From an uncultured Thermoplasmata archaeon (GTDB lineage Archaea; Thermoplasmatota; Thermoplasmata; Lutacidiplasmatales; UBA184), in the NCBI GenBank assembly GCA_963713145.1, contig CAVQKI010000005.1, positions 95,166 to 159,165 on the forward strand: 64,000 nt of DNA, given 5' to 3'. Each line of letters opens with the position of its first letter. The stretch's first letter is position 1. Under the pieces are notes generated by a model that saw nothing but the letters and a program-made list of their open reading frames with translations, searched no databases and was not told the DNA's origin. A program made the translations under genes and the position numbers. Of the stretch, positions 28,497-32,697 are shown one piece after another.

Positions 28497-28543
28497 ACAC
28501 CCCCTACTGTAAAACGCACGGGGGCATGGCGTCTCCAAACCCA
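28497..28543. repeat. Copy 1 of a conserved intergenic inverted-repeat motif (ccccc-ACTGTAAAA-spacer-GGGGGCATGGCGTCTCCAAACCC).
   Basis: Shares 35-40 nt with the copies at 30590 and 32663. Lies in the divergent intergenic region between the repeat protein and the membrane glycoprotein gene. Confidence 0.6.
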
Positions 28544-28943
28544 GTTACCCAGATCCGGCGGCAAGGGGAGGGGCCTTTGAAGTCAAATGAAGCCCTTCGT
28601 GATTACCGACTATTCGTCGCGTCCCGACCTCGAACCTGCCGACCTCGGTCGTGGAAGGGAGTCGACGGGGACTGGGTGCGGAAACGACCGAAGGGGCGAG
28701 ATCGTCGACCCGCTGCGAATGCGGGTGCCCCGACGGCCGACCGACCATGTACGGCCAGGCACGGGGGCGTAAACCCAAGTGCTGGCCCGCGTCTCCGAGA
28801 GCTTCCGACCTACCGTTTAAGTACGAACAGCGCGACTGTACGCCGAGATGGCGACAGATCCCGCACCCACGCTTCCGCAACCCGCAACCACCAACCCTAT
28901 GGAAGTTCCTGCCGGACCGCGCCCGCCAGCCCCCCGAGCGGGA

Positions 28944-30173
28944 ATGTCGTCCGCCGCGAAGATCGGGCTCGCGGTGATCCTGGTCGTCGTCGTCGTCGTT
29001 GGCCTCGGGCTCGGCGGCGTGATTCCGGGGTTCCATCTGTTGTCTTCCGGGAACGGTAGCAGCGGCACGTCGAGCGCTGGGTCCTCGGCGAACGCGTTCG
29101 ACCTGGCGAACGCGTTCGCATCCTCTCACGACTCAGGCCTGTTGTATGGGGTCTTTGGCATCTCCGTTACAGCGGCCTTCCAGGCACAGTTGAGCGACAT
29201 CAACGGGACGTGCCTCGTGCACGACCCAACGAATTTCACGGTGCCCGCTGACAGCGCCGTCTATTGGAATGGATCGGCCAGCGGGTGGCTGTTCGTGTAC
29301 TATTCGTCCGCGGGCCCCGCCGTGAACGTCGTGGGCGTACTGGGGTCGCAGGCGATCCAGATCGCGACCTACCCGGGGGCCGCGTGCGAGGGCGCATTCC
29401 CGTCGCTCGTCCCATTACCCGCCACCTACATCAACAGCACGGCGGCCGCCACCCTCGCGCGTGAATTCAGCCCCGAAATCTCCGGATTCGTCTCGAACAC
29501 CAGCTCTGCGAACGCGCAGTACACCTTGGCCGCGACCAACAACAGTTCTGCGCCCCCCGTCTGGCATCTCTACTTCACGAGTTGCTCCATCGGTCCCGGG
29601 GACCACGTAGGTTCGGGCACCTCCGCGAATGCATTCCTGGACGCCGCCGACGGCTCGGCCCACCCCCTTTCCAGCAACGCGAGCGCCAGCACGAGCTGTT
29701 CCGGTGGCGGAAACCCGGTGCCTGGTTTAGGCGAGACGGCATCCCTAGGGGACGATTGGAGCAGCTTCGTGGTCTCGGGGCCGACCTACACCGAGTTCGC
29801 GAATCTCAATCCCCCCGTCGGAGTGACGACCGGGGGGATCGGAATGTACCTCGCGCTCGCTGCGACGGGAGCTCCGGTCGCGACGACACCGGCCCCGGCG
29901 GCGTGCGCCGTCGGCACCCTATTCGCCGGCCCAAACTGCACAGGACCATCGGGAGGAGGGTGGTACGGTGTCCTTCTCAACGAGGGCACGGGGGTCATCC
30001 TCGCCACGTACGACGGCGCGAATGCGGTGTGGAGCTCGGCCGGAGTGGTAGTGACTGCGGTCGACCTCCTCGCGGTCATCTCCTCGACCGACTACACTTC
30101 TCCGTCTGGAACTTACTACTTTTCCCCGTTCGGGACCGGCACGACCGTGGTGGTGGGCGCCTTGGCGCTGTAG
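28944..30173 (+). CDS. N-terminally membrane-anchored extracellular protein, Ser/Thr/Gly/Ala-rich with many N-glycosylation sequons. Unknown function.
   Basis: MSSAAKIGLAVILVVVVVVGLGLGGVIPG is a TM anchor. NGSS, NGTC, NFTV, NGSA, NSTA, NTSS, NNSS, NASA, NCTG are sequons. Probable beta-rich extracellular domain. Confidence 0.5.
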   Translation: MSSAAKIGLAVILVVVVVVGLGLGGVIPGFHLLSSGNGSSGTSSAGSSANAFDLANAFASSHDSGLLYGVFGISVTAAFQAQLSDINGTCLVHDPTNFTVPADSAVYWNGSASGWLFVYYSSAGPAVNVVGVLGSQAIQIATYPGAACEGAFPSLVPLPATYINSTAAATLAREFSPEISGFVSNTSSANAQYTLAATNNSSAPPVWHLYFTSCSIGPGDHVGSGTSANAFLDAADGSAHPLSSNASASTSCSGGGNPVPGLGETASLGDDWSSFVVSGPTYTEFANLNPPVGVTTGGIGMYLALAATGAPVATTPAPAACAVGTLFAGPNCTGPSGGGWYGVLLNEGTGVILATYDGANAVWSSAGVVVTAVDLLAVISSTDYTSPSGTYYFSPFGTGTTVVVGALAL

Positions 30174-30589
30174 TCGGCTATCTCCGAACGTCGTCCTCGG
30201 CCGGTTGACAGTCTCTCGCTCCCGCGTCCGATCGAACTCAGCTGAATCGCATCGGTCGGGCTCTTCGGACCCGAGGATCGGTATTCGGGTGGCGTGCCCC
30301 GCTTTCAAGGGGCAGGCCGAATGAGAGTGGGAGTCGTCGTCAGGAAACCAATCGGCCAGGAACACCGGTGGTTCGCCGTCCTACCGGATTGGGGAGCCAG
30401 GAACTGATCTTAGCGGCTAGGCTGCCTACTCGAGGCCCGGACCGGCGTGTCGCGGCAGCAATCAGAGCCCCCCCTTCCTCAGTCAGGTCCGGCCCTCCGA
30501 GGCGTCCTTGGCCCCCACCCCCTCCCTTCACCCTCCCCCTGCGCGCGGGAGAGCTCGCGGCGGCGGGTGGTGGGTGGGTGCGGGGGGTG

Positions 30590-30632
30590 CCCCCCACTGT
30601 AAAATAAGTGGGTGCAAGGCGTCTCCAAACCC
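30590..30632. repeat. Copy 2 of the conserved intergenic motif (cccccc-ACTGTAAAA-taagtg-GGTGCAAGGCGTCTCCAAACCC). It is preceded by a C-rich and then G-rich tract.
   Basis: Same orientation as copy 1. Sits in a convergent intergenic region. Flanking cccccaccccctcccttcaccctcccc / gggtggtgggtgggtgcgggggg could pair. Confidence 0.6.
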
Positions 30633-30777: not shown

Positions 30778-31200
30778 CTACTGATTTCCGGGCATCACCA
30801 TGAACTCGTTGCCATCCGGGTCCTTGAGTCGCGCGTGCCAGCCCCACGGCCGCTTGACCGGCTTCTGCCCGAACCGGACCCCGTTTGCCTCCCAAGCTTT
30901 GCACGCCGCGAGGAACTCTTTCTCGCCGCCGGGGACTTTCAAGGTGATCCCGAGAAGTCCAGGCTCGATCGAATCGCCATCACTGATCTCCGCCCATTCG
31001 CAGAGGTGGATCATCCCCTTCGAACCCTTCCGACCCACGGTTACCCAGTGGCCCATATCCTGGAGGAGCTCCAAGCCTACCTTCTGAGTGTACCACTCTA
31101 GGGAGCGCTTTCGGTCGAGCACCTCGATCGCAACGCTCGACAAGTACGCCTTCGGAAGTCCCGGGGAAGCCTTGCCTTTGGTGACAGACTTACGCGCCAT
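30778..31200 (-). CDS. Glyoxalase/bleomycin-resistance/dioxygenase (VOC) superfamily protein.
   Basis: AIEVLDRKRSLEWYTQKVGLEL...MIHLCEWAEISDGDSIEPGLLGITLKVPG...GVRFGQKPVKRPWGWHARLKDPDGNEFMVM has the paired beta-alpha-beta-beta-beta VOC pattern. Confidence 0.7.
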   Translation of the reverse strand: MARKSVTKGKASPGLPKAYLSSVAIEVLDRKRSLEWYTQKVGLELLQDMGHWVTVGRKGSKGMIHLCEWAEISDGDSIEPGLLGITLKVPGGEKEFLAACKAWEANGVRFGQKPVKRPWGWHARLKDPDGNEFMVMPGNQ

Positions 31201-31394
31201 CGAACATCAGTCGCACCGGGGCAGTTGACCCTTCCGGCGGTTCCACCCCTGGTGGGCGTGTTGACCGTTGCGCCCTAGACGGCCTCGGAGGGATGCTCGC
31301 AGAGGGAGGGTCGGGCGTGCACCAACGGCCCCGGTAGTATCCGGCCCGGCGACCGCGGGGAGGGACGAGGACCCCTCGCCCCGCGAGGGCGAAC

Positions 31395-32519
31395 CTACAG
31401 GATCTTCCCCGCGCGAACGACCGGCGTGCCGTCGACGGAGATCTCCGAGCCTGCGAGGTTGACGGAGCCATGGAAGTCCGAGGCGTTGCTCCCCCCCAGG
31501 TAGGCGTTCCGGCCCACGGCGAACTCGATGATGCCGCGCTCCGAGTGCTCCAGGTACGGCACGTTGACTAGGCTGGGGTTCAGTCCGATCGTAAGCGAGC
31601 CCGCTCGGTTCTTCCCCGGCGTACCCCTAGCGTAGTTCCGGGCGAACGTCGACTCTCCCTCCTCGAATGAGAAGGAGGTCAGCTTCCCGTCGGAGAACTC
31701 GAACGCGCCGCCCGAGTACACCACCCAGGGGAACCAGGTCTCGTCGTAGCTGCGTCGGTTCGAAACGATCCTCCCCTGGGCCGTCTTGGCATCCAGGGCC
31801 ATGCGGACCCTCCCGTCGGGGAAGTTCGCCAGCATGTCAAACTCGCTGAAGGCCCGGTCCTTGGGGTGGGGGTACCCTTCGTAGAGCCTCGGAGGAACAC
31901 CGGCCAGGGCCACATCAAGGTCTGTCCCGTTGGGGTGCGTGATCCGGACCTTCTTTGTGCCGCTGAAGGCGCGAGCGAGGCGCTTACCGCTCTTGGCAAT
32001 CTCCTCCGGGTCGGCAAGGCACCCCTCGAGGAGGGCCTTCATCCACCGCTGCTTGCTGACCCCCCATTGACGGACTCGAGAGTCCGTTACCCACCCCATT
32101 GCCATCCGTCCTCCTCGCAACCCGGTCGACCGGGCGAGCTTGTACCACCGGTCGAACCAGCCATCGGCCCATGCGTCCAAGCCTTTCTGCCCTCGCTTCT
32201 CCAACCGGGCCGAGTCCGCCGGGCCCCAGAACTGCACGTAGACGTCGGCCGCCGCGATCGCGGCCCATTCCGGGTCGGACAAGCGGCCGAGGGGCCTGGC
32301 CTGTTTGCGTTCCACCGCGCGCCACCATGCGTTGTCGTCCTCGTATGCCAGGAACGCACTCCCGCCGACCCGGCGCACCCCGTCCACCATCGCCGACGAC
32401 ATGGAGAGCGTGTGGGTCCAGGCTTCGACGATGACGTTCTCGCCGGGCTTAATGCGGAGGTAATTCACGACCAGGTTGCGGGCGGCGGCGCGTTCGAGGG
32501 ACGAGGGACTCAGGCTCAT
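31395..32519 (-). CDS. Aminopeptidase, M29 (PepS/AmpS, thermophilic metalloprotease) family. Assignment is tentative.
   Basis: 374 aa with family-like segments ...VIVEAWTHTLS..., ...GIIEFAVGRNAYLGGSNASDFHGSVNL... Length is as expected. Assigned from overall family resemblance, not a fixed signature. Confidence 0.6.
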   Translation of the reverse strand: MSLSPSSLERAAARNLVVNYLRIKPGENVIVEAWTHTLSMSSAMVDGVRRVGGSAFLAYEDDNAWWRAVERKQARPLGRLSDPEWAAIAAADVYVQFWGPADSARLEKRGQKGLDAWADGWFDRWYKLARSTGLRGGRMAMGWVTDSRVRQWGVSKQRWMKALLEGCLADPEEIAKSGKRLARAFSGTKKVRITHPNGTDLDVALAGVPPRLYEGYPHPKDRAFSEFDMLANFPDGRVRMALDAKTAQGRIVSNRRSYDETWFPWVVYSGGAFEFSDGKLTSFSFEEGESTFARNYARGTPGKNRAGSLTIGLNPSLVNVPYLEHSERGIIEFAVGRNAYLGGSNASDFHGSVNLAGSEISVDGTPVVRAGKIL

Positions 32520-32662
32520 GGCAGGGGGAGCGAGTCGGGGCCACTATTTGAACCGGAATCAGTCCGTAGCAACAAGTTCAGATCGCGCGTTTCAATTCAA
32601 TCCGGAGGGTGAGAAGACACGGGCTCCGCGGGAGGCGATTTCCGAGGCGGGCTGAAGAAGGA

Positions 32663-32697
32663 GGGTTTGGGGACACCATGCCCCCACTGTAAAATAA
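32663..32697. repeat. Copy 3 of the conserved motif in inverted arrangement (GGGTTTGGGGACACCATGCCCCC-ACTGTAAAATAA). It sits immediately upstream of an AT-rich promoter and the RHH regulator gene.
   Basis: The left arm is the reverse complement of the right arm of copies 1 and 2; the core ACTGTAAAA is shared. A second tgtaaaacag lies at 32727. Confidence 0.6.

Follow-up and report, generated by a model that had tools for sequence, protein, structure and literature searches.

In the window, the whole 64,000-nucleotide stretch of Thermoplasmata DNA that was analysed, an AT-rich core with GC-rich surroundings lies between genes in three copies at the positions given for them in the initial annotation. 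All are on the + strand, as are the features below unless stated otherwise: copy 1 (28500-28542) reads CCCCC-T-ACTGTAAAACGCAC-GGGGGCATGGCGTCTCCAAACCC, copy 2 (30590-30632) CCCCCC-ACTGTAAAATAAGT-GGGTGCAAGGCGTCTCCAAACCC and copy 3 (32663-32699) GGGTTTGGGGACACCATGCCCCC-ACTGTAAAATAAAT. With up to 2 mismatches the core CCCCCACTGTAAAA occurs 3 times in the window against 0.08 expected, a number reached in 0 of 100 shuffles, and no fourth copy turns up in the window even with 6 mismatches allowed. Copies 1 and 2 form a 43-nt direct repeat of 81% identity. The 15-mer GGCGTCTCCAAACCC has two exact + strand occurrences and one on the − strand with 2 mismatches (32663-32677), and the left arm of copy 3 is, as had been proposed, the reverse complement of the right arm of the others, at 21/23 positions for copy 1 and 19/23 for copy 2. 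The spacing had been given as 2093 and 2073 bp, but with the copies placed in register (28501, 30591, 32681) it is exactly 2,090 bp, twice. Just CCCCC had been recorded to the left of the cores of copies 1 and 2; that run is present, but as part of some 30-55 nt of another, degenerate type of arm.

Between copies 1 and 2 an open reading frame (28848..30173) encodes a predicted membrane-anchored protein of 441 aa with many N-glycosylation sequons and no Pfam or NCBIfam match. Between copies 2 and 3, both on the − strand, are a Glyoxalase/VOC-family gene (30778..31200; Pfam PF00903, E 5.6e-8) and an M29-like (aminopeptidase-like) gene (31395..32519) whose match to PF02073 is weak (E 2e-4, below the curated cut-off). 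Neither Cas1 nor PolB (best tblastn E 0.16) nor a transposase of any kind was found in the window. To the right of copy 3, on the constant side of what is argued below to be an insertion site, is a host gene for a ribbon-helix-helix (RHH) regulator (32741..33139), the first of a conserved cluster RHH / Cob_adeno_trans-like / YchF-type GTPase with synteny in >80 loci. Its product shows a weak match to the N-terminus of NikR (E 7e-4), and the orthologue in locus L018 matches PF01402 RHH_1 (E 2.4e-5). In the promoter (32700..32740), where column conservation across 64 loci was followed, there are a CACAAT motif, a TATA-like TAAATA (32713-32718) and, between the latter and the start codon, the boxes GTTAAAC (32721-32727) and GTAAAAC (32732-32738).

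What, then, is the motif? One class of transposon, the casposon, owes its mobility to an integrase of the Cas1 family, known as casposase. A scan for the arm, which covered one genome per species (the comparison sequences are metagenome assemblies throughout), gave 11 matches, 9 of them in Thermoplasmata MAGs, and in 7 of those 9 the arm is just upstream of the RHH orthologue. In the related Thermoplasmata contigs L009, L014 and L015 an arm identical to that of window copy 1 (23/23) is separated by 45 nt from an intact gene for Cas1, which matches PF01867 (E 5.6e-27) and TIGR00287 (94.6 bits, cut-off 71.7), with the M. mazei casposase 6OPM as best PDB match (E 3.9e-17). The neighbouring gene is PolB-like, of the protein-primed type (6/6 tested match PF03175, the best with 28.8 bits against a cut-off of 25.8), and this pair stands beside the arm or its variants in six independent contexts. 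The complete 9.4-kb element of L016 (97-9500) terminates on either side in the arm, the two being 23/23 identical, and has a perfect 15-bp duplication, TTGTGTTTAACAACC. At the RHH site itself, L018 and L019 carry Cas1+PolB elements of ~5 kb, each with a perfect 15-bp duplication and another variant of the arm; in L020 the terminal arms are 124 nt long (97% identical), with a 15-bp duplication at a different target. The terminus GGGGGCA is common to all four variants, and in the complete elements Cas1 was the sole integrase or transposase observed.

Complete Cas1+PolB elements thus have this arm as their terminal inverted repeat (TIR) and this core as their target-site duplication (TSD), and with one common insertion site and presence/absence polymorphism there, it is very probable that the motif consists of a casposon TIR, the 23-nt GC-rich arm GGGGGCATGGCGTCTCCAAACCC reading inward, and a TSD, the AT-rich core of 14-15 nt. 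The casposon TSD is 14-15 bp long (PMC6614799). A single inverted repeat from which different copies had lost different arms, as first envisaged, gives way to something else: the arm-core-arm palindrome is a junction, with the right end of one element, a common TSD and the left end of the next. Tandem casposons with one TSD common to neighbours are on record, as are solo TIRs (PMC4779613, PMC6563490).

Window positions 28473-32699 are accordingly a tandem casposon array of three or more decayed units, in which three junctions are recognisable. The older unit A is represented by a degenerate right-end TIR (28473..28504), a variant GGTCGGGTCGGTG...ACCCCC that aligns at 26/31 with what directly precedes the RHH-gene TSD in L063, and the equivalent junction of L099 has a similar ...GGCTACAC..CCCCC end; leftward in the window neither a partner TIR nor a further TSD-like box was found. 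Exactly between this ...CCCCC end and the GGGGG... end of unit B is TSD copy 1, (T)ACTGTAAAACGCAC (28505..28519), the oldest and most diverged target copy (10/14 with TSD copy 3, 9/14 with copy 2).

Unit B (28520-30595) starts with the TIR GGGGGCATGGCGTCTCCAAACCC (28520..28542), the same as that adjoining the intact Cas1 genes, and the homology reaches into the subterminal region (87% over 54 nt). There follow subterminal casposon sequence, with ATCCGGCGG, and the destroyed start of a casposase gene (28543..28629; ATG at 28587, MKPFVITDYSS...), in which the Cas1 match is limited to 11 codons (7/11, E 6.3). This flank of copy 1 is 76% identical over 123 nt to L021 7127-7248, a stretch of TSD, TIR, subterminal sequence and Cas1 pseudogene, and the L021 pseudogene fragment does match Cas1 (E 3e-16). 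The 441-aa protein encoded in unit B has an oppositely oriented homologue (38% identity) in L099, in a unit with TIRs at its borders that precedes the RHH gene. The right-end TIR (30542..30595), delimited by alignment to other loci, is of a different variant type (...GCGGGGGGTGCCCCC) and aligns with the right TIR of the complete casposon of L018 and the RHH-proximal end of L074. As the ends are of two different TIR types, unit B is probably a chimera of two relics and not one element.

TSD copy 2, ACTGTAAAATAAGT (30596..30609), is common to units B and C, and is identical to TSD copy 3 at 13/14 positions (14/15 with the preceding C), so that the best-matching duplication in the window is that of the promoter-proximal unit. 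This unit C (30610-32685) has a left-end TIR GGGTGCAAGGCGTCTCCAAACCC (30610..30632) and a right-end TIR GGGTTTGGGGACACCATGCCCCC (32663..32685), each with 2 mismatches to the consensus, and it is at the latter that synteny with L021 on the RHH side begins (window 32662 on; 92.8% over 9.5 kb). TSD copy 3, ACTGTAAAATAAAT (32686..32699), is the promoter-proximal host target copy and contains the conserved box TGTWWAAC. Units B and C are both exactly 2,076 bp long. The M29-like gene within unit C is also TIR-bounded in L012/L021, L066 and L013. Its unit in the window is inverted relative to L021 (83% over 1,354 nt), the inner spacer of L021 is inverted also, and a simple history of serial insertion is therefore insufficient. 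Is the gene cargo? In the arm-less locus L100 it directly adjoins the RHH gene, in divergent orientation, and so may be a host gene trapped by rearrangement; it could be either. The window units, all of which are without Cas1 and PolB, are decayed or non-autonomous casposon derivatives, which may have been mobile in their own right.

Across the loci compared, the insertions lie at one spot, a conserved TGTWWAAC box ~60 nt upstream of the conserved RHH regulator gene. Empty sites (such as L036, L054, L076 and L100) have a single copy of the box. At the empty L036 there is one copy of CCTGTAAAAAAGTAG, whereas the occupied L079 has a 3.1-kb insert with the arm at its end, bounded by CCTGTAAAAAAGTAG (14/15), between flanks that are 95% and 99% identical in the two. 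The insert is also in L004, colinear with the RHH gene and at 79% identity, so that the difference is more likely due to precise loss than to fresh insertion. In L018 and L019 the intact elements, whose TSDs are perfect, lie nearest the promoter, with the degenerate solo TIRs beyond them, an order consistent with additions having been made next to the promoter. A casposon target comprises a leader plus the TSD and, of the TIR, just 5 terminal nucleotides are needed (PMC6614799). This precedent from Aciduliprofundum boonei and the polarity of the arrays together suggest that the RHH promoter serves as 'leader'.

Could the palindrome instead be a long operator of the adjacent tandem-RHH regulator, the reading favoured in the initial annotation? 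Copies 1 and 2 would then be further sites of its regulon. Copy 3 precedes the RHH start codon by ~55-80 nt, and the core TGTWWAAC box is in all 64 aligned orthologous promoters, with two more boxes 3' of the TATA-like element. However, the host-regulatory behaviour is limited to the core box and does not extend to the palindrome: among the 62 distinct orthologous promoters, all of which keep the promoter boxes, 16 have the arm, 21 an unrelated ...CCCCC end and 25 no arm. The GC-rich arm is thus dispensable there, unlike the promoter. Moreover, Cas1+PolB elements carry arms at both ends, the same terminus is found at L020, a locus without an RHH gene, and no conserved gene has its promoter at copy 1 or copy 2. 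The operator in its palindromic form is very unlikely, though the box at its core may well be both a regulator site and the casposon target. The suggestion of mobile-element remnants was right as to kind, but not in their being of a small element, as these are casposon-derived 2-kb gene-carrying units at a single locus. An altogether different mobile element (an IS-derived MITE, an REP/IS200-type hairpin) or a recombinase or invertase site, with the Cas1 link coincidental, might be thought of given the window's lack of a transposase and the inversion of the M29 segment between two related genomes with arms at its borders. Recombination between inverted TIRs accounts for that inversion, though, a TSD length of 14-15 bp is that of casposons, units of 1.3-3.1 kb that carry genes at a single locus are unlike MITE or REP, and the six contexts gave Cas1 with its PolB-like neighbour and nothing else of the kind; the chance of this alternative is slighter still.

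A small structured RNA or terminator hairpin had also been suggested, and the CCCCC...GGGGG of copies 1 and 2 could pair around an AT-rich loop. It is extremely unlikely: no Rfam family matches, whether at the gathering score or with E relaxed to 10, the folding energy of either strand cannot be told from that of shuffles (z -0.06 to -0.88), copy 3 has a single arm, and the arm is conserved as sequence, without compensatory changes, its variants being unrelated except at the terminus. The GC-rich inverted repeats with a G-run around AT-rich DNA resemble origin-recognition boxes, and bring to mind an archaeal replication origin with such arms flanking its AT-rich unwinding region. But copies 1 and 2 have an AT-rich stretch of just 14 nt, orthologous loci can do without the arms, these bound transposon-like insertions with TSDs, and skew is unchanged at the site; an origin has next to no chance of being correct.

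Returning to the casposon reading, the elements are like family 1, known from Thaumarchaeota (e.g., NitAR1-C1, NitNF5-C1/C2; PMC4046053, PMC6563490), in make-up, and may belong to it: Cas1 is without a C-terminal HTH (273-305 aa here), PolB is of the protein-primed type (PF03175), L018 and L019 are compact (~5 kb) and have 3-5 small genes ahead of polB, TIRs are accompanied by a ~15-bp TSD, and insertion is site-specific, beside a conserved gene left undisrupted and in tandem at one site. Unlike in family 1, the host belongs to Thermoplasmata, the target is a box upstream of the RHH promoter and not the ef-2 3' end, and the window has relics without Cas1. The Methanosarcina casposons (family 2; PMC4779613) are of another family, and neither their TIR nor their TSD or target is related in sequence, yet there too one copy is often inactivated, solo TIRs remain at the target after decay, and the TSD has conserved ends and is partly AT-rich; the relic units here differ in keeping intact-looking non-transposon genes and several TIR variants at one site. 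The A. boonei target (PMC5137440, PMC6614799) has the same bipartite logic of a duplicated 14-15-bp segment and a constant flank, and its need for just 5 terminal nucleotides is paralleled by variants here that share terminal TIR nucleotides alone (GGGGGCA); there, however, the target is a tRNA-Pro 3' end, and here a promoter region in a putative leader role. Cas1-less units bounded by TIR and TSD around unrelated genes resemble the artificial mini-casposons served by Cas1 in trans (PMC6614799, PMC10359463), but those are laboratory constructs, and these are natural units, known from sequence, whose empty/occupied pair looks like precise loss. A CRISPR array likewise has a Cas1-family integrase, a short unit duplicated beside a constant leader and polar growth. 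That reading was rejected, as the 'repeats' are 14-15 bp and diverging, the inserts are kilobase-long elements with TIRs, and there is no Cas2, no effector gene and no sign of transcription into guides.

How might such an array arise? At the TGTWWAAC-containing site, ~60 nt before the RHH regulator gene, the casposase would link the element's 3' termini (...TGCCCCC-3') to the target with a stagger of 14-15 bp. Gap repair would duplicate the site and thereby leave an intact copy beside the promoter, open to further insertion, and successive insertions would yield a head-to-tail array with one TSD between neighbours, seen as arm, AT core and arm. Recombination between inverted TIRs may then have inverted the M29 segment. 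The motif is thus very probably the scar of several casposon insertions at one spot before the RHH gene. Casposon scars of such a kind, tandem casposons and solo TIRs were already known; what is new is their occurrence in Thermoplasmata, the target they use, a make-up like that of family 1, and Cas1-less units that carry genes.

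That the recurring motif is explained by the terminal inverted repeats (TIRs) and target-site duplications (TSDs) of casposons is something of which we are highly confident. Of the readings offered in the initial annotation it is the mobile element that has been borne out. All three copies are present where that annotation had put them, and their AT-rich core CCCCCACTGTAAAA (28501, 30591 and 32681, each on the + strand) compares with 0.08 occurrences expected. Copies 1 and 2 form a 43-nt direct repeat, and the 23-nt GC-rich arm of copy 3 is, as described, the reverse complement of the arms in copy 1 (21/23) and copy 2 (19/23). 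The spacing is near-equal as claimed, but the values of 2093 and 2073 bp give way to an in-register distance, core to core, of 2,090 bp twice. No further copy with up to 6 mismatches was found within the 64-kb window.

What, then, is each 'arm-core-arm'? It is a junction, composed of the right end of one unit, a common TSD and the left end of the next unit, with casposon ends of the window type reading GGGGGCATGGCGTCTCCAAACCC. Junction 1 (28473-28542) has a degenerate variant right TIR, matching at 26/31 positions the RHH-proximal end in L063, one of the related loci compared, then TSD1 (T)ACTGTAAAACGCAC and a left TIR identical to the type in another such locus, L009. Unit B (28520-30595) carries the gene for a 441-aa membrane protein, has at its right end a TIR of the type in L018/L074, and is a probable chimera derived from two relics. 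Junction 2 (30542-30632) contains TSD2 ACTGTAAAATAAGT, and unit C (30610-32685), with a VOC gene and an M29-like gene, lies between TIRs at 30610-30632 and 32663-32685 that agree at 19/23 positions; it is followed by TSD3 ACTGTAAAATAAAT, 13/14 identical to TSD2, and then by the promoter of the RHH gene. Neither the VOC nor the 441-aa protein was on record in an exact-protein look-up, and neither a left-end partner for unit A, the unit to which the right TIR of junction 1 belongs, nor extra TSD-like boxes were found in the window. Tandem casposons separated by one common TSD have already been described (PMC4779613, PMC6563490), and the window is in the same state of tandem array plus solo TIRs as Methanosarcina (PMC4779613); so too are L012/L021, L013, L018 and L019. 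Unit B and unit C have precisely the same length, 2,076 bp; TIR-bounded units at other loci have other sizes. Beyond their TIRs no hidden similarity of units B and C was found (in-register identity 27.4% versus 27.6 +/- 1.0% for shuffles); the equality is either coincidence or a length constraint.

Neither Cas1 nor PolB was found in the window by tblastn. Junction 1 is followed by subterminal casposon sequence and then by a casposase remnant, the initial 11 codons of the gene (start 28587), in a stretch that is 76% identical over 123 nt to the TSD-TIR-Cas1-pseudogene stretch of L021, the closest relative. With no Cas1 and just this 11-codon remnant and pseudogene homology, the window units are relics or derivatives rather than full casposons. 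The host flanks of the window and L021 are colinear at 85% (16690-22484) and at 92.8% (32662-42119), the latter beginning precisely at the TIR, and between them lie 10.2 kb in the window versus 3.5 kb in L021.

Other features of the window may be recorded here. Left of the array, a stretch of ~6 kb (22484-28472) has no counterpart in L021; it includes a full-length ammonium transporter gene (23276-24583, + strand) and a convergent second copy (24761-25918, - strand) covering positions 1-213 only of the 399-position profile, the two being joined by a 39-nt inverted repeat (23978-24016 / 25226-25264). At 27340-28095 a - strand ORF (26880 to ~28100+) has 7-8 tandem 99-nt (33-aa) repeats; its protein had no Pfam match, and L032 encodes a homologue with 58% identity upstream of its RHH gene. 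Family 2 casposons typically carry HEAT-repeat proteins. A second synteny gap, 3.7 kb at 42120-45822 that L021 lacks, contains genes for a protein like the enterochelin esterase N-terminal domain (42736-43182, - strand) and for an adenylate/guanylate-cyclase-domain protein (44129-45493, - strand). Elsewhere there are four copies of a ~123-nt (41-aa) repeat in a GC-rich coding region (13089-13587) and a 73-nt unit repeated in tandem 3.6 times (84% matches; 60256-60524), and GC falls to 58-62% over 60000-64000, where most proteins are without family matches.

When one genome per species was scanned with the degenerate pattern GGGTTTGGNGACNCCNTGCNCCC of the arm, 11 matches emerged, 9 of them in Thermoplasmata MAGs; none was found among viral contigs. 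In 7/9 of these MAGs the arm is followed by a GTAAAAC/GTTAAAC box, an AT-rich promoter and an RHH orthologue, so the context of copy 3 is kept across species; the RHH gene is the first of a conserved RHH / Cob_adeno_trans-like / YchF-type GTPase cluster beside translation genes. Exact matches number 1-2 per MAG, always in one neighbourhood, that of the RHH or the M29-like gene. L009, whose arm is identical to that of window copy 1 (23/23, with similarity extending 54 nt at 87%), has an intact Cas1 gene on the other side of the arm, 45 nt off, and the same element is in L014 and L015. This Cas1 matches PF01867 (E 5.6e-27) and TIGR00287 (94.6 bits, cut-off 71.7) and none of the CRISPR-subtype models; its closest solved structure is the family 2 casposase of Methanosarcina mazei, 6OPM, a match which shows only that the protein is casposase-like. 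Cas1 with the same ends, and with no CRISPR/cas linkage, is present in L009, L014, L016, L017, L018 and L019. Adjoining the L009 Cas1 is a 650-aa protein that matches PF03175, the protein-primed-type PolB family, as do five homologues in related loci, so that 6/6 Cas1 neighbours match, the best score being 28.8 bits against a curated cut-off of 25.8, with one passing and the other five weaker; these PolB-like proteins had no match in PDB or NCBIfam. Cas1 plus PolB without CRISPR is the casposon signature (PMC4046053).

Complete elements give the anatomy. That of L016 (97-9500, 9.4 kb) encodes Cas1 and PolB and has the arm at both ends, 23/23 identical, within a perfect 15-bp TSD, TTGTGTTTAACAACC. 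Those of L019 and L018, each ~5 kb with Cas1 and PolB, occupy the same target site with TIRs of their own (GGGGGCAGTAGCGCGCGAAA... and GGGGGCACCCCCCCCGCGCACCCC..., respectively) and also perfect 15-bp TSDs. A more distant Cas1+PolB element, in L020 (8792-14954), has 124-nt TIRs at 97% and a 15-bp TSD, GAGGCGAACGCCGTG, at a different, GC-rich target downstream of SMC/ScpA/ScpB genes. The arm, borne at the ends of Cas1+PolB elements, is therefore a TIR, and the AT-rich core, exactly between ...CCCCC and GGGGG..., is the TSD. TSD copies match at 15/15 in L016, L018, L019, L020 and L021, at 14/15 in L079 and at 13/14 for TSD2/TSD3 of the window; casposon TSDs are 14-15 bp long (PMC6614799, PMC4779613). 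All four TIR variants, even that of L020, start with GGGGGCA, in agreement with the experimental finding that integration requires just five terminal TIR nucleotides (PMC6614799). The cargo of the L016 element includes HATPase_c and SMODS (CBASS-like nucleotidyltransferase) proteins within 4067-8573, and in L017 a type I restriction-modification operon adjoins the casposon genes; these neighbours suggest defence genes as casposon cargo.

To which family do the autonomous relatives belong? Family 1 casposons differ from families 2-4 in that their Cas1 has no C-terminal HTH, and they have 3-4 small conserved genes upstream of polB. Judged by gene content, the make-up of the relatives matches family 1: their predicted Cas1 proteins (273-305 aa) consist of the Cas1 domain only, the PolB is of protein-primed type, polB is preceded by 3-5 small ORFs in L018 and L019, and the elements are ~5 kb. 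In the literature searched, which was incomplete, family 1 is described solely for Thaumarchaeota (PMC6563490, PMC9939771), and in the casposon full texts covered, likewise an incomplete set, no description of a Thermoplasmata lineage or of an RHH target was found. The anatomy is thus that of a casposon, a kind already known; the host lineage and the target are new.

Might arms and core together instead be an operator for the RHH regulator, as the initial annotation proposed? Metagenomes scanned with aligned RHH orthologues yielded 80 loci, whose 62 distinct upstream regions were compared; the samples with L021-L100 are of peat and soil. All 62 keep the promoter, i.e., a TGTWWAACAAA box at about -61, CACAAT, TAAATA, GTTAAATT..TGTTAAACG and the start codon, and the break of homology between genomes typically comes at the TGTWWAAC box. 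The arm is present, with up to 6 mismatches, in 16/62, another ...CCCCC end in 21/62 and neither in 25/62. The operator is not supported for the arms, which fail this test of conservation; of the motif it is the box within the core alone that behaves like a host site. A direct comparison of occupied and empty sites points the same way. L036 has a single copy of CCTGTAAAAAAGTAG, where L079 has a 3.1-kb insert without Cas1 that is bounded by CCTGTAAAAAAGTAG (14/15) and terminates in the arm plus a subterminal CCGCCGGAT motif; flank identity between the two loci is 99% towards the RHH gene and 95% at the opposite side. As the arm is missing from many promoters and L036 and L079 differ in this way, the arm is mobile DNA that can be dispensed with, and the core box belongs to the host. 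A fresh insertion in L079 is weakened as an explanation by the presence of the same insert in L004 (79% identity, colinear with the RHH gene), and from these alignments L036 looks like a precise loss. Its single-copy site agrees with the outcome of excision in M. mazei, which leaves a single empty site (PMC10359463).

That the arm is so well conserved between species had earlier raised the idea of a conserved non-coding RNA, which was abandoned because many orthologous sites lack the arm and Cas1+PolB elements bear it at each end. Nor is the small structured RNA or terminator of the initial annotation supported: Rfam gave nothing relevant, at gathering score over the whole window or at E <=10 over 28200-33000, and on neither strand do the three copies fold with more stability than shuffles. 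The idea of a tRNA fragment or att site was met by a tRNA scan of the window that found only tRNA-Glu at 3287. An archaeal ORB or replication origin is not supported, with arms that are dispensable and bound insertions, and REP or IS200-type hairpins do not accord with a single locus, TSDs and a Cas1 neighbour. MITEs would be below ~0.6 kb, non-coding and dispersed in many copies, in contrast to units of 1.3-3.1 kb with genes. Were another transposon responsible, its integrase might be looked for in the complete elements, and no other integrase is seen there; an invertase could be invoked for the M29-like segment, which is TIR-bounded and inverted between the window (31343-32694) and L021 (8405-9756; 83% identity), but this is explicable by recombination between inverted TIRs. 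Short GGGGG..CCCCC stretches were considered as excision scars and rejected, those of L005 and the window being the ends of longer variant TIRs.

How would casposons accumulate at this promoter? The casposase would attach the 3' ends of the element at the box, in two staggered positions separated by 14-15 bp; on repair the box would be duplicated, and the promoter would retain an intact copy, so that the RHH gene would be undisrupted, as with other casposon targets (PMC4046053). In L019 and L018 intact elements with perfect TSDs adjoin the RHH gene and degenerate solo TIRs are distal; in the window the promoter-proximal TSD pair is identical at 13/14 and the others at 9-10/14. From this gradient, growth of the array would seem to take place at the copy nearest the promoter, and the RHH promoter may by analogy have the role of the 'leader' element defined for the A. 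boonei casposon target (PMC6614799).

The evidence for mobile units without Cas1 is mixed. Units of one to four genes between TIRs are met repeatedly across loci: one with the M29-like gene (window, L012/L021, L066, L013), one with a 327-aa SQHop-like gene (L005, TSD 14/15), homologues of the 441-aa protein (L099) and a pair of genes for 188-aa and 137-aa proteins (L079, L004). In the composite of L021 (7140-9944) TIRs of ~57 bp and a perfect 15-bp TSD enclose a Cas1 pseudogene, and the 14-nt inner spacer runs in the opposite orientation to the perfect TSDs on the outside. The M29-like gene also directly adjoins the RHH gene in L100, which has no arm. Natural mini-casposons are plausible because artificial ones have been mobilised in trans (PMC10359463). 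There are, in addition, very short inserts, in L013 only and perhaps in L026. L013 (4132-4222) reads TIR - ATTTGTAAAACATC - GGGGGCGGGGATACCCCC - ATTTGTAAAACATC - degenerate TIR, an 18-nt insert of two TIR termini only between perfect 14-nt duplications, which could be the excision footprint that the original casposon model predicts or very short DNA integrated by casposase; in L026 two copies of CTCCGTTTAACAACCA, 12 nt apart, precede the RHH gene. Is the RHH-promoter site a natural 'proto-CRISPR-like' locus, with a constant leader, a 14-15-bp unit duplicated over and over by a casposase, and as inserts not just full casposons but trans-mobilised cassettes without Cas1 and very short pieces of a dozen or so nucleotides? 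We think it rather unlikely, though if it were, the identical size (2,076 bp) of units B and C would hint at a length constraint.

What had seemed a palindrome becomes a record of transposition, in which three junctions attest three or more casposon-derived units at a single site. For annotation it carries a warning that a GC-rich arm plus an AT core upstream of this RHH gene should be read as the scar of a transposon rather than as a regulatory palindrome. A family-1-like lineage is added outside Thaumarchaeota, together with a new kind of target, the promoter-upstream box of a regulator gene, kept intact by duplication, for which several TIR variants, alike only in their terminus GGGGGCA, compete. 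The TIR-bounded cassettes without Cas1 resemble laboratory mini-casposons, and such hot spots, which supply concrete substrates with which to assay integration, come closest in nature to the leader-proximal growth of CRISPR arrays.
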